Source of the DNA: Protoeuglena noctilucae
Lineage: Eukaryota
DNA: 64,000 bases
Direction: 5' to 3'
Assembly: GCA_958009085.1 (NCBI GenBank)
Contig: OY253678.1
Location: 310,001 to 374,000, forward strand
The notes under the pieces are model-generated. The model was not told where the DNA came from and searched no databases. It saw nothing but the letters and a program-made list of their open reading frames with translations. The translations under genes were made by a program, and so were the position numbers. This document shows, piece by piece, positions 19,296 to 31,841 of the stretch (within the stretch, counting starts at the first letter, position 1; the number at the start of each line of letters is the position of its first letter).

Positions 19296-22200
19296 ATGAG
19301 CGCCGATGAAGCGGAGCTTCGCTCCGCGCTGGATGCCGCGCGAAAGGTGCGTGGATGGGATGGCATGTTGGGCGCCCTGGGCCGCCAGCGCGCGCCCGCC
19401 GTCGACCCCTGTCCCTCGCTATCGAATAACATTGCTTGGATGGTCGAAGCGGCGCTGCCTAGCTCACGACAGCGTGCGTGTCGCGCGCAGGAGCGGGACG
19501 ATGCCGTGGCCCAGGTGGCTCAACTTCAGCAGGAAAACGCGCGGCTGGACGGGGAGCTCGAGGTTACCATGATGAAAATGCGAGAGCTGCAGGCCGACGC
19601 CGCCGAGTCTGCAGGTCCGTCCGCGGCGAGGGCCGGCGCCGGGCGTCTTGGACGTGGTAGCGCCCGAGGATCGCGGCTGGGGATGCGAGCGCCGCAATGC
19701 AGCAGTGAGCAACATGCCATATCCTCGTATGCTCGGCCGCAGAGGAGCTGGAGCGGCTGCGAGACCAGAACGACGTGCTCACGGCCGAGGTGCGAAGGCT
19801 GAAGGACGCTGAGGGCGGCGACCCTGGCCGCAAAGACGAGCAGGTCGAGGCGCTGATGAGCGAGTGCCAGCAGCTCCGCCAGCAGGTGGCAGGTGACTAC
19901 CTCTGCAGTGCGGCAGCACGCTTGGGCAATGGCACAGGCAGTCGCCCCGCCATCACTGCATGCCCTCTCGCATTGCGTTCCCCAGAGGCCGAGAGCAGCT
20001 GGAAGCGGGCGCTGGGCGAGCTGTCGGCGGCGCAGGAGCGCATCCGGGAAGCGGAGGAGTACGAGAAAGCCCTGACCACGGAGCTGATGGACTCACAGCG
20101 CCGGCAGCGGGACGGCGCGTCATTGAAGGACGGGCCCACGAGCGGCCGCGTGAGGCCGCAGCGCGCCTGCAGTCACGCCGCTGCTTTCCAGGCTACCCGA
20201 TGCGACGGCCTCGGCCCCCCGAGTCCCGCCTGCAGATGTCGGGGTCTCAGGACGGAGCGCGGGTGCAGGAGCTGCGCACCCTGGTCGAGCAGCTGCAGGA
20301 GGAGCTGGTGGCGGTGAAGGACGAAGCCGCAACGTCCGAGGCGAAGCTCCGGGAGGAGAACGCCGCGCTGCGGGAGGCCCTGTCTGCGGCGGGGACGGCG
20401 AAGTCCGAGCGCCTGCCGCCGCCGCCGCCCCTCGCGGCCCCGGTGCCGCTCGACCGGCCCTTCAAGACGAGCTACGAGGCGGACGGGGAGCCGCCCGGGT
20501 CGGTGCGCATGGCGGCGCCGGCGCCCGTCATGCCCGTGCCTTCCGCGCAGTCCCGCGCCAGCAAGCCCGAGAGCAAGCCCGAGAGCAAGGTTTCCCCACG
20601 CGCGCCTGGCGCTGGGATGGCGCTGCCCCTCGGCTTCCTGCCTGGGGACTCGAGGGACGCCGGCAGCCTGACCGCCGAGGGCGTCTGGAAAGGGATCTCC
20701 GCCACGGAGCCGCCCCCGCTGCCCGACATCGGCGCCGACCCCGCCTTCGAGGTCAACAGCCGCCCGGCGTCGTCCCACAGCTGGGAGCGCAACCTCGGCG
20801 GGGACTCGGACCTCGACCTCGAGGAGTTCCAGGTGAGGGAGGAGTTTACTGGCAGGGTTTTCTGGCAAGCGCGCCACAAGAGGTGTGACTGGTAGTTTGA
20901 TGAGAAATGGTGCGCCAACGAGTTGACCGCGGGACGCTCGGGCGCCGCAGGTGGACGAGGAACAGGTGGAGGCGGCGCGCAAGATCCAAGCTATGGTGCG
21001 TGGGTTCTCGACACGCCAGAGACTCGCCAACGAGGGCAAGGTCGTCAAGACCGGCAAGGCGGGTCGCAAGCCTGCGGCAAAGGAGGCCGAGGGCGGCAAG
21101 CGGGGCGAAGCGCTGCCGGAGGAAGAGCCAGAGCCAGAGAAGCAGGCCGCTGCGGATGCGGAGGCTGCACGAGACTCCGGTGCGCAGACCTCAACCCAGC
21201 CGGTCCAGGCAGTGGCCCCCAGCAAGTCGAGCCGGACGCGCATGTGGAGCGAGCCGGCCACCGCAACCGGCCGCCCCACGGCCACCCCCGCCTCGTCCGC
21301 GCGCGCCCTCCCCGGCGTGTCGCTGCCACCGGCGGCCCCGGCGACCGCCGCGCCTCCCAGCGGCCCCGCGGATGGCCTCGACGCCGCAGCTCTGGCGCAG
21401 CGGGTGCAGGAGCTCGAGAAGGAGCTGGCGCAGGTGCAGGGGTACGTGGCGGAAGCGGAGGCTTACATGGACGGCCAGGTGTCCGACATGGCGGACCTGC
21501 AGCAGGTGCTGAGCAAGCTGCGGGTCGAGAACGGCGTGCTGCGCGACAAGGTGGAGCGCGCCCGTGCCAGTGCCGCGGACCACGAGCGGCGGGCGAAGGA
21601 GCTGGAGGGTGGCAGTGCGGCCCGGCATGAGGCCGCCTCCGGTGGGGATGCGGGGGTGTCGGACGAGGAGGTGGCGCGGCTGAGGGCCCGCGTGACTGAG
21701 CTGGAGTCGGACATGGCGCACGCCAAGCGCTACGTGTCGGAGATGGAGGCTTACATCGAGTCACAGGCCGCCGACGCGGCCGAGCTGCACCAGGCGATGG
21801 GCCGGCTGCGGGTGGAGGCGGGCAAGAACAACGAGCGGCTGCACCGTCACTAGACCCACGGGGCGGCCGCGAAGGAGCAGCTGGCGGAGCGCGACGCGGC
21901 GCTGGAGCAGACGCGGCGGGCGCTGGCGGAGAGGGAGGGCGAGCTGCGCGCGGCCCAGGAGGCGCTCGACGAGGCGCGGCGGGGCGTGCAGGCGGCGGGG
22001 TCGGCGCCGGGCGCGGACGGCGACGAGGAGCGGCAGGCGCTCGAGGAGCTGCGGCGGGAGGTGGAAGTGGCGCAAGAGGCGCTCGACCGTCAGCGGGCGG
22101 CGTTTGACGTCGCCAAGGACGCGATGGAGGCGGAGCGGCGGGAGGTGGAGGCGCGGCACGCGGCGGAGCTGCAGGCCGCGAAAGAGGCCCTGGCGGAGGC

Positions 22201-25200
22201 GCGTAGGGAGCTGGGCGAGGTCCAGGGAGCGGGGGCCGAAGGCGACCGGGCGTCCATGGAGGAGCTGCGGCGCGAGGTGGCAGCGGCGCAGGAGGCTCTG
22301 GACCGGCAGCGGGTGGCGCTGGCGGAGGCGAGGGAGGCGCTGGAGGCTGAGCGCCGCGAGATGGAGGCGACGAAGGACGCGAAGGGCGCACCGTCGGGGG
22401 CGGCTGACGGCGGCGCGGATGAGGCAGCGCTGGAACAACTGCGACGGGAGGTGGCGGCGGCAAGGAAGGCGGTGGCGGAGGAGAGGGCGGCGTTGGATGC
22501 GGAGCGGCAGGCGCTGGAGGCTGCGCGTGAGACTGGCGACGACGGCGGACGCGCTTCTCTGGAAGAGTTGCGGCGGGAGGTTGCGGCAGCTCAAGAGGCG
22601 CTGGACAGGCAGCGGGCGGCGTTCGATGCCGCCAAGGACGCGATGGAGGCGGAGCGGAGGGAGGTGGAGGCGCAGCGAGAGCGGGCCCGGTCGGCTGCCC
22701 TGTCCGGGGAGGGCGGCGACGCGGCAGCGCTGGATGAGCTGCGTCGCGAGGTGGCGGCGGGCCGGGAGGCCCTGGCCCGGCAGCGGGACGCCCTGGCGGA
22801 GGAACGTGCAGCGCTGGAGGCCGAGCGGGCCGCCCTGGAGGCCGGGCGCGGGAACGGCGGCGACGATGGCCGGGCTTCCCTGGAGGATCTGCAGCGCGAG
22901 GTGTCGGCGGCGCAGGAGGCGCTGGACCGGCAACGCGTGGCCTTGACGGAGGCGAAGGAGGCGTGGGACGTGGAGCGGAGAGCGGCGGAGGCGGCCCTGG
23001 AGGAGAGCAGGGCGGCGGTGGACGTGCTCCGGGCTCAGGTGTCGAGCGAGCAGGAGGCGTTGGACCGGCAGAGGGAGGCGCTGGAGGTGGCGAGGGAGGC
23101 GATGCAGGCGGACAAGGGCCGGGAGTCGGCGGGGGCGGGAGGGGGCGCGACGTCCGCGGAGCGCGATGCTGCGGTGCAGGAGGCCCGCGAGGCGACGAAG
23201 CGCATCGGGGCGCTGTCGCGGGTGCTGGGGACGGCGGCGACGGCCGTGGCGACGCTGGCGGCCGAGGCGGCGGCCGCGGTGGGGACGACGGTGCAGCTGC
23301 CGGGGTCGGACGACTCCGAGGCGCTGCACGGGGCGGCCATCGCGTCCCTGCGCGCGTCCGTGCGGCAGGTCGTGGCCGCCAAGGCAGCCGCGGAGTCGGC
23401 GCACCAGGGCGTCGCGGCGGACCTCGAGGCTGCCCGCGCCAATCAGGCGGAGTTGGAGCGAGACCTCGCCGCGAACCGCCGGGCGCTGCAGAGCACCGTC
23501 ACTGCGCTGCACCGGGCGGCGAAGCAAGGCGAGTCGTGCTCGCAGGCGGTGTTGGCGCTTTGTGGCCCTCGGTCTGTGTGCATTGGGTGCACTGCCATGC
23601 CACGGTGCAAGTTGTCGTGAGCGTGTCTTCAAGTGCCGTGCCCTCGCAGATGAAGCCGAGCAGACGGCCCAGGGCGGGGAGTCGGCGCTGGTGGCGGCGC
23701 AGTGCCGCGCGGAGCGACTGGAGCTCGAAGTCGAGGGCCTGCGCTCCAAGCTGGTCGACGCAGTGTCAGGTGTGGCAGCCTTGTGCTGGCGTGGTTTCGT
23801 GCTTTGCTCATGAGAACTGAGAATGAGCAGGGAGGAATCCTCAGACCTGCCCTGCCCTGCTTGTATGGTTATGTGCGGGTCCATCACTGTGAGCCTGCAA
23901 GCGAGGCCCCCTTTCGCCACCGTCGCCCGCAGCCCGCGACCGGGCGGTGGGGGAGGTGGAGTCCGCGACGCACGGCCGCATGCAGGCGGAGAAGGCGGCC
24001 GAGGCGCTGCAGCAGCAGCTGGGGGAGACCCTGGAGCGACTGGCCAAGGAGACGGAGCGGGCGGAGGAGATGGCCAAGAAGGCCGAGGGCGTGCGCGCCG
24101 AGGCACGGAGGAGCACGCGCGGCTCCGCGCCCAACGGAGCGCCCGTCCTCCGCACGGAGTCGTCGGACGCGTCCGTGGCGCCGCCTGCGGAGGACGCGGC
24201 AGCCGCGGGGCCGGCGGGCGGGGCCACCGGGGGCTCCCCGCCGGCCAAGAAGCCGACGAGGCCGTCCGGGGACCGCGCGGCGAGCGGGCGCGCCCCCGCG
24301 ACGGCGCGCCGGGCCGCCCACGGCGGGGAGAAGCCCGCGGGTGCGTCGGACGAAGCGGACGACAAGGTGGACGGCGGGGGCAGCGGCCCCCGGATCGGCC
24401 TGGCGCAGATCGAGGCGATGATGGACGCGGCGGTCGAGAACGAGGCGCGGTCGCGGCGGCAGGCCGAGCGCGAGGCCGCGAACCTGATGACCGCCTTTGA
24501 CGATCTGTTCCGGGAGGTGTTGCTGGTCGGGGACGCGGCCAGCGAGTGGCTGGGGCGCGCGGACCGCGGCAAGGCGTGCGCGGACCTGCGCCGCGCGATC
24601 GAGGTGCAGGTGAGGCCAACAGCGAGGGTTTGGAGGAGGTGTGCTGACGGTGGGTGCAGGGTGGGCTGAGGCGATGGCTCTGGCATGTCCGTGTGTCGCT
24701 GCAGGTCGGCCGGGCCTTCGACGCGCGCGTGGTGGCAGTGGAGGACCGTTTGAAGGGCGCTTTGGACGAGACGGACCGCATGAGGAAGGAGATGGCGGAG
24801 CTGCACGACCTGGCCGGAGTGCGGGCGCGGGAGCTGGCCAGCGCCCACCAGGAGGCCGCGGACCTCCGGACGTCCATGGTCCGGTTCCAGAAGGACCTGG
24901 AGGCGCGGCACGCGGAGGCCACGCTCAAGCTGCACAAGAAGCTCAAGGCGGCGCTGCGGGGCTGGCGGGAGAGCGACGCGGCCCTCACGCGGTCCGAGGC
25001 GAGGGGCGGGGGGGAAGCTTGGCATGCGAATGGGACACCTGGGATGGAGAGCAATGCGGGTTTGTTCTTTCCCTCTCTCTGTGACCTCTGACCGTGACAC
25101 TCTGACCACGACCGCGCAGGCTCTGCTGGACGAGTGCCGGGAGGAGTGCCAGGTGCTGTGGGAGCGCATCAGCTTGATGGAGTCCATGATGCCGTCCGCG

Positions 25201-26230
25201 GCAGTGGGACACGCGGTGCCGAACTGGCAGATGCCCGCCGCCGCCATTGCCGCCTCGCAGACCAAGACACGGCGCAAGGTGCGCAGCGATGGGCTAGACG
25301 CCGCTGCCCCAAGCTCCTGAATTCGACTCCATTACTGACAACCGCACTCGCTCGCCCCGTCCCCCGCAGTCGACCAAGGTCGTCGCCGCGGCCCCCGAGC
25401 AGGCGGTGACCGGGACAGGCCCAGACGTGAGTCTCTTTGTATCCGTGGCGATGACGTTTCACAGAGACTCGAGTATGAGGAAGCAGCACGCCCACCTCTC
25501 TCCTCGCCCGCAGTCGCCGTACGCCCAGCCCGTCTTCTCCCGGGCCTCGTCCGTGGCACAGGCGGAGTCCCAGGGCCACTCTCGCGCCGACAAGGCGGGG
25601 GCGGGCGCCCCGCGCCCGGCGTGGAGCGCGACCCAGTCGCAGAGCCGCGGCGCGTCGCCCCCCCGGGCCCAGACGGTCCGCTACGCTGCCAACGACCCGC
25701 TGGTCGCCGAGCGCCGCCGCGCCCAGGAGCTGCGGTACATGCTGCAGGAGCTGGAGGCGGAGGCGGAGGCCATCCGGGAGGACGCGACGCTGCGGGCGTC
25801 CGCTTCGTCGCCGCGGCGCATGGCCCGGCCCAAGACGGCGACGGCCCGCACCGAGTCGGCGGGCGGGGCGGCGGGGAGGGTCGCGTCCCAGGTCCACAGC
25901 AACGCGGAGCTGCGGCCGGGCACCCGCAAGCCACGCCCCCGGAGCGCGGTGGTGCCCAAGAGCGTCAGCGCCACCCCGGCACGCGGCGCGGGGGCGGGGG
26001 CGGGTGTTGACGCGGACCCTGCCGCGTCCGGACGGACCCGGCTGTCGAGGGGCGCGGGGGCGTCCGCGGAGGGCAACGGCATGCACATGGTGGCGCCGGG
26101 CGCCGTCAGCGTGGTGCGGGGGCCCAAGGACGGGACGTACGTCGTGCGCGAGGAGGGGCAGGACGTGGGCAGGCGGGCCCCGTTCGTGGAGCAGGGCTAC
26201 GGGCGGAGGCAGGTCGCCCCCGCGCCTTAG
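19296..26230 (+). CDS. Very large coiled-coil protein with one IQ motif and internal repeats, multi-exon; in-frame TAG at 21851-21853
   Basis: IQ motif AARKIQAMVRGFSTRQRL near 20970-21025; E/A/R/L-rich heptad exons linked by phase-compatible introns; no family recognised. Confidence 0.7.
22031..23113 (+). repeat. About 7 tandem coding repeats of 45-60 aa (consensus RASLEELRREVAAAQEALDRQRxAxxxAxxAxEAERR) with Gly-rich linkers
   Basis: Visible in ORF 21986-23620 and as recurring GCGCGAGGTGGCGGCGG / CAGGAGGCGCTGGACCGGCAG DNA. Confidence 0.9.
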
Positions 26231-26239
26231 ATGCCCCCG

Positions 26240-29130
26240 ATGCGTGATGTTCCCTTTAATCAGCTCTGTGCTTCTTGATGCGTCGTTTCAGTTGAACTGA
26301 CTAGGGTCCCGTCTTCGAGAGATGCCTCTGCTATTAATATTGAAAGAATAAGCTCGCTAGCGACGCACGGGGTCATTACATCATCAAAACTGCGAGTTAC
26401 CCAGCTGCTCGCAAATGCGCTAAAGATGGCAGTTGTGCAGCTTCCTAGTGCAACTTGCACTTAATCCTCCTCGACCGTCACGGAGCCGACGTTCCGGCCA
26501 CTGGGAGACGTTCTACACCGAGGCTCCACTTTGAGCCAAGATCCACTTTCCCTGGCACGAGGCCGAAATTTTCGCCGAGATGGAGTTCCTTCTTGGTGTT
26601 ATCGGGGAACATCGCGACCATACGGGGAAGACGGGGTTCGCCCTTTGGCACTCGGTAGAATGAAGGTCCCTCAACAATGTCGTACGAGACCATCACCTTG
26701 ATTGCCTCTATGTACAGCACACCCTGTAGGGAGTGAAGAGAAGTGAGCAGAAACAGTGCTATAACCTGCTAAGTTAGAGTCTGTAATTGGACCATGTGTT
26801 GCTTATTGTAAAATGGATTGCTTACCATGTCAATCAGCCGAGCTTGGAGACCGGTTACCAGCTTTTTTTCGTCGATGTCAGAGCCGCGGTACCACAGCGT
26901 GTCGTCGGCCTCCAGCACCTTGCCACCCTGGAATCCTGGGAGATAGTCAACGGACAGCCACCCACTCTTTACGGACACGTTGAGGAAAAATTCGAAGCCT
27001 GGTTTGGAAGTGTTAGGCGACGATTTATCGGTGATCGCTCGGGCCTGATCCATGTTGAGGCCCTGCATGGGCGTAATGCGTGCAACATGTTACAAGAGAC
27101 TGCACTTACGTGTTTAGAAAACCACCGTTAGTGTGAAGCAAAAAAGGCTCGTGCTTATTATTTTGCAGAGCTGGAAACGGCTCAATTTGTCAACAGCATT
27201 GCAGAAATATGAAAATTACCATTCTTGTCTTCATACACCGTTTGGCAACGTCAAAATGTGTAAGATTATCTATAAACATTGAGCCTTTAAACGCTCACCA
27301 TTAACATAAGCTTCGCCATTTTCTCTTGCTTTGCCATCCTGTCTTTCTTATTTCCCGAAAAGTCGATTTTGATGATATCCAAGCTTTCCACTGCGATGAA
27401 GACGGGGCGGTTAATCGCAATTTTTGGAAGCACTTTAGAATGAATACAATGACAATTGTCGGCTATAGTGCATTTATGTCTTGGAAAACTTTTCGGCACC
27501 TGCGTTGCTGTCCACACCGCTCTGCTTTTGGTAGGACTGCTTATCGCATTCCATGACCATCTTGGACAACCCCCCGCAACTGCACTCGGCATCCCACATC
27601 CCTTTTTGAAGCAGAGGGATAGGGACAGGGTTCTCTGAATGGGCGCCATCAGCCGTGATCCGGACCATGGCAAGGATGGGGTCATGATCAAAAATTCCCT
27701 TGGCCACGCTTGGGTCGTGTGGATGCAGCCAGACAGAGTCTCTGGGAAACTCTGCGTGCAATCCGGAGGTTGGACACACCGCACCCACGAAGTCGATGAC
27801 CCCTTGCGTCATCCCATACTCGACAGGGGGACTTGGGGCAGGGCGAGACGCATCCCAAGTAACCTTTTTCTTCATGCCTTTCTTGCAGTCGTACGTCGGA
27901 ATTTGGACCCTCTTCCACGTCTCATTTACCTCGTAATTGCGGCAGAATACCTCCTCATAGAGCTTGATGTTGGCATCGCACCCCACCAAAACGGGCAACT
28001 TGGACTCATCCGCCAGGCCAGCAAAAAATGCACATGCCACAGACCATAGGCTGCAGGAAGCGAGGAAGGGCTGAGGCTTCGTATACATCTGCGCGTTTAT
28101 TATGAAGAGTCAGCCATATTGAAGTGAATGTTTGCTCACCCATATCTCTCACTGTCTCCGTCATTAAGGCCGTTGTTAAAGCCGTGGTAATTCACCAGCA
28201 AAAACTCGTCACGGCCTTGTCCTTTCCGCTTGCACTTGACGATGAGCATCCTGCCGGTCAATGATCCCAGGCGGCCTTTCATTCTGGTTTTAAGATCACC
28301 GCGCAACTTGAGGAAACGACACAATTCTACCTGCAGATGGGAGGACTTGCATGCAATTTTAGTCGAAGATAGCATGAAACAGCTCTGTATATAAATGCAT
28401 TTGCATGTTTTAAAACTCGACAGTACTCACCAAACATCTTGTTTATCTCTTTTCTACAAAATGGAGAAATTCCATTTGCAGGAGCCAATGATAACGAGGT
28501 AAGGGCCCTTGGCGGTCTCCTGGTGGAATAGCTCATACCCCTCATCACCGGTTTTATCTTTGTTCAGCTTGTCGAGGACACTCTTACTGTAACACTCTTC
28601 CTGAACTGGAACCTCCTGGAGTAAGACAAAATCGGGCTTGGTCTCCTTAATCTTGGACACGGTAAGGCTGTATGATTTTCGCCACCCCCGTTTCGGGCCC
28701 ACGTTGGCCGACAGCATCTTCACGTCCAAAGGATAGGGCGGCTCGGTTGCCGTGTCGCGGCGAGCGTCTCCGGACCCCCCCATGGGGCGGCGACTCTGTC
28801 CTTAGGCCCGCCTGCATGCGAGGGGCGATGCACGTGTACTTTCTTGCAGCAGGAACCTCATCGAAGGCCGTCAGGGATGCCCAACCAGACATGTTGCCGC
28901 ATTCCAGGCCCTCTTGATGCACACACAAAGACTCTCCGGCGAAAACTGCCTTGACGCAAACAATCATACAAATGTTATATCAAATCATCCACATAAACGG
29001 CCTTCGCCGAAAGATTGCAGCGAAAGGGCGGACTGTGCTCTCGCGGCAGTCGGCGTGGTCCAGCTCCGGACTGGGAGGGCATACGCTGCTTTCTCAACAC
29101 CAGCGCAGCATTTACGCATCAATGAAGGGC
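26240..29130. other. AT-rich compositional island (boundaries approximate)
   Basis: GC drops sharply right after the stop at 26230; 27181-27240 has 21/60 G+C against roughly 70-80% in flanking exons; frequent A/T-ending codons. Confidence 0.85.
26478..28783 (-). CDS. EEP-superfamily (DNase I/APE-fold) nuclease/phosphatase with unknown C-terminal region, about 6 exons; possibly disrupted at exon 1
   Basis: EEP motifs in order: MLSANV, PDFVLLQEV, FLLVNYHG, VLVGCDAN, VIDFV, FDHDPI; in-phase introns 28139-28051, 27499-27433, 27298-27063, 26825-26724; exon 1-2 junction unresolved. Confidence 0.78.
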
Positions 29131-30088
29131 AAATGCGCACCCTGGGGTGGGGAGTGCCGCTCCGCAGCCCAGGGTTCCTCACCAAGGGCGCCCGCAGGGC
29201 TTTCGACCTTGCCACCCCCTCTGACCGACGTAGCCCCGCTCCCGGACTCTCTCACACCAACCAGCGCCTGTAGCTCGCTTGCGACCCCTCAAGCCGACGC
29301 GGAGGCCGCGGAATCCCGGATGTGCGAGCAAGCGCGGGGTCCAAAACGACGAGAGGCCTTCGCTGTTACTGTCTCGATCCGCATTGCCCTCACAAGCGCA
29401 CATGGGAAGCACGCCGCCGGGAAGTTTCGCCGTTGCACACTGTTGACAGTGTTCCGGCGGGTAGGGCACCGGTGGATGCAGCCGTTCAAACCTCGTCGGT
29501 CCCGCCGCTACGCTCGCAGCCCACAAATTGTTCGCATGCTCTTCTGAGACCCGACCCCCGCTGCGCCGCGGCGCTATTCGGCCCCGCCGGGCGCTAGCTC
29601 CGGGCACGACGCGTCCCTGGTGTGCAGTCCTCCCCGACATTCAATATGATGTGTTTCAGGCGGCCCCCGGAGGATTTGAGCGGCCTCTTCGTCGCCCGGA
29701 AGCGGCGGGGCGGCGAGAGTCTCGAAGAAGGTGCGGAAACCCCGACGCGGGTGGGACGATCGCCCTTGTTTCCTGCCCGCGAGCCATGATTGCTTCGTTC
29801 TTGCTGCGGGGAACCGCGCCTGGCTCGCCCGGGAGCTCGGCCGGGGCGGACCGAGCTCGTTAGGGAGCGGCCCCACTCGCGGCGCTCGAGGCATCGCTGC
29901 GGCCTTGCGGGGCCCGCGGCACGGTTCCTGTTGATCGTCGAATCGCGCGCCGAGTCGCGGGGTCCTCGGATCGCCGCGTCGCGCCTTCCCGACCCCCTCG
30001 CATGCTACCGTCGCCCGGGCGCAATTCGAAGGTCTGGGACCCCCTCGCAGAGCGTCCCGGCAATTGGCGTGGGCGGAAGTCGTCCAGG

Positions 30089-31018
30089 ATGAACGGAACG
30101 GGGAAGAAGATTCACGAGGCGAGTCGAAAACCCCCCGCCCCGTCCGTTCCCCTCGGGTCGCCTCTCCGGGAGCCGCTTGGGGGGCGACGATCGCACGTCG
30201 TGAATCTTTCCTGACGATTAGTGGCGCACGCGTCGCGCGCAAGTCCCCGCGATCCCCGGGAGGCAGAAAACGCTCCCTCCCTCCCTTGCATCCAGGACTG
30301 TCCCCGACCTCCCGCGGCGGACCCCGTGGATCCCTGGGAGGCCCTGAACATCCACATCATCCCGACCAAGGTCGCGCGCGTCGTGCCGGAGGAGGCCATC
30401 ACCGTCACGCGCCGGATGCCCCCCGTCTCGTGCCCGGGGCTCGGCAGCGTGGGCAGCGAGACGTCCGCCGAGCTCTTCCCGTGCCGCAAGCTCGAGCTCC
30501 GGTGAGCCCACGCTCGACGCGCCGCGATCGACCTGCAAAGGCCCCCGGCCGCTTCCATCTCATGTGACGGCATGCGCGCCCTGTCTTGCGACACGTGCAG
30601 CATCCCGAAGAAGGACTCTGAGGAGGACGACTCGCCGACGTGGGACGCGGAAGACGACGGAGCCGGCACGCCCGGCCGCCGGATGAGCCGGGACGGGCCG
30701 AAGGGCAGCCGCCGCCGCGTGAGTTGCGCAAGCCAGCCACCTGCTGACAGCGAGAGCCGCCAGTGCACCTGGGCGTTCGCTATCATGCGCTTCCTCTCGC
30801 CCCCGCGCGCACAGAGCTCCGGACTGGGCTGGGCGGAGCGCGACCGCACCTATGCCAATGACGCCGAGCTCGCCCTGGACGGTGGCGCCGGCCTCCTGAC
30901 GCCGAGGGACGTGGGCCGGGCGTCCGGGGGCGTGGCGGTGGCCGTGTCCCGCATGGCGAGGATCTTTGAGAGCATGATGAGTTACGAGCACCCCCCAGCC
31001 AGGGAGTGCCACCTCTGA
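30089..31018 (+). CDS. Small hypothetical protein, about 4 exons
   Basis: MNGTGKKIHE|DCPRPPAADPVDPWEALNIHIIPTK... to ...HPPARECHL*; host-like codon bias, phase-compatible splice sites. Confidence 0.55.
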
Positions 31019-31052
31019 GCGAGACGGACGGACCAACACGCCCGACCGTCTT

Positions 31053-31071
31053 CCTACCTACCTACCTACCT
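31053..31071. repeat. (CCTA)n microsatellite, about 4-5 units
   Basis: cctacctacctacctacct directly visible. Confidence 0.8.
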
Positions 31072-31841
31072 GCGCCGTCTTCCACCTCAATGCGCACCCT
31101 GGGGCCGCACGGCAGACCCTCAGCGACCGTGCTCCAACGCATGACCAACCGCAACACCCGGGAGCCATCCTCGGGGCGACAGTAAACGGCCAACCGTCGC
31201 CGAGCCATGTCGTGCGACACCAAGTGATCGCCGGTGCACCCCAGGCGACCTTTGCTTGCCTCCATGACTGCGCGACCGTCCCGAGTAACCCCTGCGACCG
31301 TGTCCCTTCTCCTCTCCTCTGCGCCTCTGGGCACATGCACAGCTCGTCGGCTCTGGCGCCCTTGCATCCCAACGCCGCATGGCGCCCTGTTTTACCCTCT
31401 GCTGCATGGCCCTCTCCCCCTCGCTGCGACATAAGGCGGCGGCAGGGACGCCTTTTCGCCTTGCTCCTGACGACGCTACTCTGCTCGTCTGTTCGCCACC
31501 CCCGTCTCCTCGACTCGGGTGATGAACGGACCTAGAGGCGGCCAGCAGGCGGGCCTCCATCCATGTCTGTCGGCTTTTCCTTTTCTCCTCCCTCTTTTGC
31601 GCTCTCTCTCCTCTCCCGGACGGCGAGCGGGACGACACCCTGCGTCGTTCACGGGCCCCCAGCAGCATGCACGCAAGGCCCGCGTTAGACCCGACACGGT
31701 CGGCATGGAGGGTTTTTGGCGGGCACAGCCTGTGCCTCTGGCCGCGTTTGGCTACAAATTTTGAAGCGACCAAGCTACTGACCTAGCCTGAGATCTGCCA
31801 ATCTATGTTGCACACCCGTGCTCTCTCAAGCAGCTCGCAAT

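Follow-up and report, generated by a model that had tools for sequence, protein, structure and literature searches.

A frame-broken EEP-type nuclease gene in a low-GC island of Protoeuglena noctilucae and its five dispersed relatives

How does a short island of about 50% G+C content (GC) come to lie in the GC-rich genome of Protoeuglena noctilucae, and what is the nuclease gene that it carries? The island spans 26245..29010 of a 64,000-nucleotide stretch (the window: contig OY253678.1 of GenBank assembly GCA_958009085.1, positions 310,001 to 374,000), and the analysed copy lies on contig C11 of an assembly that totals 26.3 Mb in 27 contigs. A preliminary description had presented its gene as a stand-alone, recently acquired nuclease of the EEP fold. 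The gene turned out to have five paralogues in the genome, to extend for about 190 residues past its EEP part and to be broken in frame. The reading preferred here, to which we give a probability of roughly 0.55, is that the six genes are DNA cassettes that were inserted separately from a pool outside the genome and are now decaying. What makes the case worth attention is the family with its scars, to which the broken window copy mainly serves as a pointer.

Six divergent copies in low-GC islands

Three different queries converged on the same six places, on contigs C11, C13 (twice), C14, C19 and C5. The five sister copies are labelled L008 to L012, with L008 (C13:922.4-926.9 kb) and L011 (C13:25.4-28.4 kb) on one contig and L009 on C19. 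All six copies have a GC of 0.45-0.51 in a genome that is evenly composed at about 0.67: among 340 overlapping 2-kb windows, taken from 20 stretches of 10 kb on 14 contigs (200 kb sampled), none fell below 0.55 and the lowest stood at 0.587. Pfam finds 17 further EEP matches in the genome, about eleven of them resembling long interspersed nuclear elements (LINEs), and all of these lie at 0.62-0.74. That the six members of this family sit in GC dips, and the other EEP matches do not, supports the earlier view of an inserted gene in a eukaryotic genome.

The copies differ widely in sequence. Over its first 345 residues the window copy is 38% identical to L008, 38% to L009, 32% to L010 and 28% to L012, and no near-identical sibling of any copy was found in the genome. 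Fourfold sites are 21-43% identical between copies (ten pairs of five copies, L012 omitted, with 19-34 sites each), so that silent sites are near saturation. The predicted introns match in place and phase (1, 2, 1, 0 and 0) in the window copy, L008 and L010; here and below, the gene models and breaks of the sister copies are predictions, RNA backing the window copy alone.

Two copies are open and four look broken. The open ones, as predicted, are L008, with a frame of 589 residues, and L009, which canonical introns could link in phase to the one DUF3638/DUF3645 frame that the genome has. The models of L010, L011 and L012 require one or two frame breaks each, albeit with a weaker acceptor that could rescue the frame of L012. 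Apart from the DUF3638 frame adjoining L009, the sister islands hold no frame of at least 330 residues. At the far end of the L012 island lies a SAP-like frame (L012:6561-6815; Pfam E 1e-4, just below the cut-off).

Some local features of the sisters may be recorded here. The DUF3638/DUF3645 gene stands directly behind L009 (L009:3593 to L045:5768; C19, about 257.8-265.6 kb, minus strand), with a frame of 2204 residues plus more, and three predicted GT-AG introns could possibly join the two into a nuclease-tipped giant protein. Just downstream of it, at L045:3858-4427, is a repeated frame that is presumably parallel beta-helix-like. One break in L011 (L011:5316-5330) falls just before the RML strand and resembles a small insertion in which five bases were duplicated, the conserved phase-2 intron of L010 carries a GC donor (L010:5392), and a microsatellite built from five-base units of A and T alone (L008:4400-4530) takes up much of a 339-nt intron of 0.15 GC.

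Insertion scars at two of the copies

Direct repeats flank two of the sisters. Those around L008 measure 323 and 304 bp and differ at 31 of 304 positions, and those around L011 measure 166 and 181 bp and differ at 26 of 163. Each repeat is unique host sequence in duplicate, occurring exactly twice in the genome. The fitted low-GC blocks of L008 and L011 have one border within 80 and 10 bp, respectively, of the upstream repeats and the other within about 370 and 150 bp of the downstream ones. Both units lie just behind a host gene on the same strand, encoding an ankyrin-repeat protein at L008 and an EamA-like protein at L011, where the duplication includes the final codons of the host frame. 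The same EamA-like gene contains about four tandem 15-codon units, in or beside a coding exon (L011:7300-8300).

The order of events can be read from these numbers. As the repeats are 10-16% diverged and the silent sites of the copies are near saturation, the copies diverged before these two insertions took place. The intron phases common to the copies likewise indicate that the introns predate insertion, which argues against a spliced-RNA intermediate. On their 3' sides, L008 and L011 carry neither a poly(A) nor an ATC tail, and introns older than insertion together with missing tails point to DNA as the inserted form. Nicks placed far apart on the two strands give rise, on repair, to long duplicated stretches of unique target such as these.

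The favoured course of events starts from an outside pool, most likely eukaryotic and of about 50% GC, in which the cassettes would have diversified before reaching the 67%-GC alga one by one as intron-containing DNA. Each would comprise one intron-bearing gene, coding for a metal-dependent nicking domain and a variable tail: a domain of no recognised family that three copies have in common, in another copy a SAP-like DNA-binding tail and in yet another the predicted DUF3638/DUF3645 join. Staggered breaks would have served as insertion sites, repair having copied 170-320 bp of host sequence to both sides; host splicing would process the introns, neighbouring host promoters could drive the cassettes, and most would then decay. 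That four of six are frame-broken is what one would expect if the nuclease costs its host more than it brings. The nuclease itself may make the nicks, though this is rather unlikely, or it may have travelled as cargo, perhaps as a toxin that is retained temporarily, as with insect cdtB – a transferred DNase I-like gene with intron positions common across hosts and with pseudogenised copies (bioRxiv 10.1101/544197). The cassettes give no CdtB profile match in NCBIfam, Pfam or PHROGs, however, and the scans returned no prokaryotic or phage relative.

At the window copy the foreign composition stands, and the idea of a recently acquired insert draws on this and on the duplications at its sisters; a scar of its own is missing, so that its recent insertion by the same route is probable at best. 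Inverted flank matches above shuffles were found at none of the six copies. Two candidate terminal pairs of the window copy, 26188/29229 and 26351/29272, were rejected as being at shuffle level, the former a 14-nt inverted pair that is one of 105 and is not located at the sisters' borders.

The window gene and its product

RNA contigs confirm that the window gene, on the minus strand throughout, is transcribed and spliced in both X8 and X9. Evidence from read runs takes the form of contigs – X7 from DNA, X8 and X9 from RNA – in which rare variants are lost; as the three possibly stem from one campaign, and the assembly's own source may be among them, they support the sequence rather than its spread. 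No alternative letter appears in them across island or flanks, and a mis-join or contamination, raised at the outset as a possible refutation, is thereby excluded. The runs in which the stretch is present are marine or come from one labelled organism; seven runs under the same species label contain hardly any of the sampled words, which carries no weight.

The gene opens with a non-coding exon 1 (29183..29383 in X8/X9 contigs, outer end approximate) of host-like GC, placed in head-to-head orientation to its neighbour on the plus strand; no reading frame links this exon to the EEP frame. Intron 1 (28812..29182; 371 nt, GC 0.57) separates it from the N-terminal EEP part (28454..28783), whose 109 residues run from an ATG at 28783 through SANV, LLQEV and a conserved hydrophobic strand to a premature TAG at 28456-28454. 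Intron 2 (28331..28430; 100 nt) coincides in position with a phase-1 intron predicted in four of the sisters, which would fit a one-base frame shift shortly before the stop of the window copy. There follow, in the RNA contigs, an exon encoding the RML strand and NYHG (28140..28330), intron 3 (28051..28139; 89 nt, phase 2), whose position is common to all six copies, and an exon with GCDAN, IDFV, FDHDP and a conserved Trp/Cys patch (27500..28050). Beyond intron 4 (27391..27499; 109 nt, phase 1) lie the first two exons of a C-terminal domain whose family was not recognised (27299..27390 and, in RNA contigs, 26826..27062), separated by intron 5 (27063..27298; 236 nt, phase 0), and then intron 6 (26724..26825; 102 nt, phase 0) and the last coding exon (26478..26723), which ends in a stop at 26480-26478.

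Introns 1 and 3 to 6 are skipped in both X8 and X9, whereas intron 2 is skipped by the X8 contig alone and retained in that of X9. Spliceosomal introns, as first described, are thus genuine, but there are six rather than four, and the motif set that they were thought to unite in phase is split by the stop. NYHG, GCDAN, IDFV and FDHDP occupy a separate second frame of 453 residues with intron 2 retained and 422 with it spliced; the stop at 28456 parts the first two catalytic motifs from these four and is removed by no observed splice. Neither an alternative letter nor an indel was found in the X7 DNA contig across the stop or in the RNA contigs. The 109-residue product is recorded on 17 contigs from three sources, and two proteins in public collections, P0016 and P0017, start inside the retained intron 2. 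The window copy is therefore a decaying member: it is spliced, but the whole catalytic domain cannot be made from the transcripts seen.

Proteins of the EEP superfamily carry N, E, H, D-x-N, D and D-H motifs in that order, with GDFN and SDH as canonical forms. In the window copy all six occur in the order first described, every catalytic position is kept, and the departures from GDFN/SDH, real as they are, are restricted to non-catalytic places. The set is complete in the window copy (over two frames), L008 and L009 and altered in L010, L011 and L012. Such ordered motifs are those of PF03372 and its members DNase I, APE1/Xth, TDP2 and CCR4, from which the cassettes differ in an RML strand of their own, a Cys before D-x-N, the Trp/Cys patch and the unrecognised tail. 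Library matches agree with this and are weak throughout: PF03372 matched four of six N-terminal halves below its curated cut-off and, exon by exon, reached a best E of 0.0055 with scores under 24.5 bits, again short of any curated cut-off; all three NCBIfam matches to the 109-residue part were EEP families below cut-off; and all five matches of the N-half profile among solved structures were EEP proteins (TDP2 or CNOT6L; E 0.018-1.9). In the ESM Atlas the N-half of L009 was assigned at 0.92 to a cluster of which 21% of members bear an EEP label, a lead only. The spliced C-terminal part (P0017) matched nothing in Pfam, and the single match of the C-half profile among solved structures was judged due to chance. 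The C-terminal domain of about 190 residues is common to the window copy, L008 and L010 (0 of 500 shuffles for each of the three pairs) and has no relative in Pfam or the ESM Atlas. We infer from the motifs an unnamed EEP-type (DNase I/APE-like) family with putative nuclease activity.

Around this gene the drop in GC is as abrupt as first reported, 1-kb windows over 26501-29000 giving 0.47-0.50 against about 0.67 elsewhere; the best two-state fit places the island block at 26245-28679, beyond which GC stays intermediate as far as about 29010, and overall GC is about 0.50. GC at third codon positions is 0.64-0.69 in the island gene against 0.89-0.91 in two frames of its left neighbour, so that codon use is indeed shifted, yet 'AT-rich' holds only relative to host composition. 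Five of the gene's introns have a GC of 0.39-0.47 and the first 0.57, compared with 0.57-0.72 in the neighbours' introns. The right GC border falls within intron 1; the first exon is accordingly host-like and faces the divergent host gene (29400..31500, plus strand, start approximate, intron GC 0.68-0.72). To the left, the last exon of a convergent plus-strand host gene (3' end at 25298..26230) stops 15 bases from the island's border. The 3-kb island DNA is single-copy in the genome. As the preliminary description had it, no reverse transcriptase, Rep/helicase or transposase is adjacent, and a second long coding frame, looked for in the island, was not found.

The left neighbour (window 21696-26230, plus strand) is long, repetitive, rich in Ala, Glu and Arg and coiled-coil-like, with no Pfam match in the two frames tested. 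RNA contigs of the EEP transcript extend into its last exon (window 25698-26722), which may reflect an overlap of the genes at their 3' ends or the merging of two transcripts in one contig. Two host introns in the window apparently have GC donors (24997-25117 and 30119-30295). Elsewhere in the genome, a split nuclear gene for the small subunit of RuBisCO places the host in the green lineage.

Where the cassettes may come from

Relatives outside the genome are almost lacking. A profile of the C-half, run against 1.84 billion representatives, gave eight matches, six of which were this genome's own exons. The one credible outside relative, P0007, is a fragment of 125 residues with a GGDMN motif on a 1.2-kb contig; it is 30-40% identical to the copies, whose own range is 30-50%. 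Another match, P0008, is a tandem repeat of a 109-residue unit without the motifs and was judged spurious. Scans of viral, metagenome, prokaryote and phage collections gave no relative. Word-based searches, which are weak, left the catalytic exon and alignment A4 unmatched among longer proteins, and from P0016 they led back just to the fragment in the window itself; two fragment alignments, A2 and A3, had short exons misplaced and were excluded from searches. In literature searches, with most subscription journals out of reach, no description was met of the family, of such duplications or of stand-alone apurinic/apyrimidinic (AP) endonucleases, and DUF3638 was mentioned just in passing.

A number of results weigh against insertion from an outside pool. 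At the window copy no flanking duplication or terminal repeat rises above shuffles, so that neither the target-site duplication nor the empty site earlier proposed as a check was found there, X13 yielding just a 206-bp piece within the gene. L009, L010 and L012 are likewise without a flanking repeat above shuffles, which leaves four of six copies with no scar, and the copies share no common terminal or non-coding sequence. Apart from the one outside fragment, the scans met no candidate for a donor, and a tree of seven rows (the copies and the outside relative) has no supported branch. The C-terminal half matches no library, and AlphaFold2 confidence (pLDDT 31.0 for P0017 alone, 37.6 with a seven-row alignment) is too low to be used or to show the fold; the EEP assignment accordingly stands on the motifs and the sub-threshold profile matches. 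On the other side, in favour of an outside pool, three CCCTAAA units open the inserted unit of L008 (L008:6899-6920; C13, about 926.6 kb), the sole such 16-mer in the assembly. Host chromosome ends consist of CCCTAA repeats, and CCCTAAA is presumably the usual plant-type telomere unit rather than the host's; the tract is nonetheless a weak hint, since seven-base variants occur zero to three times per host chromosome end.

The main rival, to which we give clearly less credence, is a resident, fast-evolving family – a defence or conflict effector – that is old in the lineage and was moved by duplication and break repair. Low GC would then reflect a local mutation or expression regime, and the donors of the two recent insertions would have been deleted. 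Intron phases common to the copies, host-like splice signals correctly used, tails that vary (including the SAP-like one), a birth-and-death pattern that leaves two of six copies open and the near-absence of outside relatives all suit a resident family, and long direct repeats could permit the loss of copies by recombination. They have to be set against a uniformly GC-rich genome with no similar dip in the 200 kb sampled, GC shifts at the repeat borders and the need for both donors to vanish within 10-16% divergence. As for defence, the role suggested earlier, PADLOC and PHROGs gave no meaningful match. The fungal poison-antidote families wtf and Spok are likewise scattered as strongly diverged copies, many of them pseudogenes, and Spok has a nuclease domain; the flanking repeats of the cassettes, unlike theirs, are unique host sequence and not dispersed repeats.

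A viral origin, also raised in the preliminary description, appears improbable. The islands would be the last remnants of an intron-rich nuclear DNA virus or of a decayed endogenous giant virus, with the nuclease as cargo. One report describes mirusviruses that are rich in GT-AG introns, about 80 bp long, and have endonucleases borne by introns (PMC12768974), and endogenous giant viruses are reported from green algae (PMC9693826). Yet viral contigs, phages and PHROGs gave no relative (no search was aimed at mirusvirus genome sets as such), each island has one gene with no second viral frame noticed, and the tested flanks are host genes. Free-standing homing endonucleases and those borne by mirusvirus introns resemble the cassettes in that a nuclease is the sole gene of a small unit that seems to spread and decay; homing endonucleases may also have the LAGLIDADG fold. 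However, the enzymes named in the available part of the mirusvirus report (PMC12768974) are of the HNH, GIY-YIG, VSR and PD-(D/E)XK types, none EEP, and such endonucleases have a fixed site, whereas the cassette sites are unrelated and duplicated.

There is a slim chance that the window copy is functional after all, through recoding or a rare isoform. Splicing of an 85-nt intron (28538-28454) together with an acceptor at 28327 would yield an open frame of about 500 residues with GT-AG ends – possibly the model that the earlier reader had in view – and contigs drop rare variants. Neither junction is present in the contigs of the two RNA runs, however; the 85 nt encode the hydrophobic strand, alignable in all five sisters; and the observed splice of intron 2 yields no full frame.

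Insertion of unspliced transcripts in trans by retroelement machinery, with the EEP domain derived from a LINE endonuclease, is less probable still. Dualen LINEs of Chlamydomonas do have an EEP-type nicking domain (an AP endonuclease) and produce very long target duplications, of median 900 bp (bioRxiv 10.1101/2022.05.23.493040), and variable-length target duplication, a LINE trait, is seen at two of the six copies, the window copy not among them. The genome also harbours an 8-9 kb LINE-like family with copies 97% identical. But every cassette retains introns, in single-copy DNA, and lacks a reverse transcriptase; L008 and L011 are without tails; and the copies are 28-38% identical. A long unique flanking duplication was found at none of eight resident LINE-like copies tested (borders approximate), and the family profile scores about 10 bits, over one motif, against resident LINE endonucleases.

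The resident family comprises L107-L122 (C20, C6, C15, C17, C19 and C18), of 8.4-9.0 kb with EEP-bearing frames of up to 1900 residues, whose copies terminate in ATC repeats; several are bordered by pieces of their own 3' ends, which suggests tandem or nested insertion. A second LINE-like family, on C5 and C1, has a poly(A) end. Cut-and-paste and rolling-circle transposons differ from the cassettes too, which have no terminal inverted repeats or common termini and, in the window island, no second long frame.

A housekeeping EEP gene of the APE1, TDP2 or CCR4 type, or an assembly artefact, is largely refuted: the best structure matches of the N-half profile, though to TDP2 and CNOT6L, have little strength and reflect the general motif, there is one outside relative among 1.84 billion representatives, ordinary EEP genes elsewhere in the genome have host GC, and the island and flanks agree with the DNA and RNA contigs. 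By the tests run, then, the family is not a LINE, a DNA transposon, a CdtB or a housekeeping EEP member.

Separately inserted cassettes thus remain the preferred explanation, and within it a bolder and rather improbable proposal may be made. The unit could be a new DNA mobile element whose sole enzyme, an EEP-fold nuclease, nicks the two strands a few hundred bases apart, leaving host repair to insert it with a 170-320-bp duplication; transfer among algal species would then let each host gather unrelated, short-lived copies. Even without this step, a nuclease family consisting wholly of compositional outliers, with scars younger than the split between its copies, points to the repeated entry of intron-bearing genes into an alga, from a source that would not yet be in the databases. 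Transfer between eukaryotes is seldom seen with a legible insertion scar. Should the nuclease prove to drive insertion, this would be a DNA element that spreads without transposase, recombinase, Rep or reverse transcriptase.

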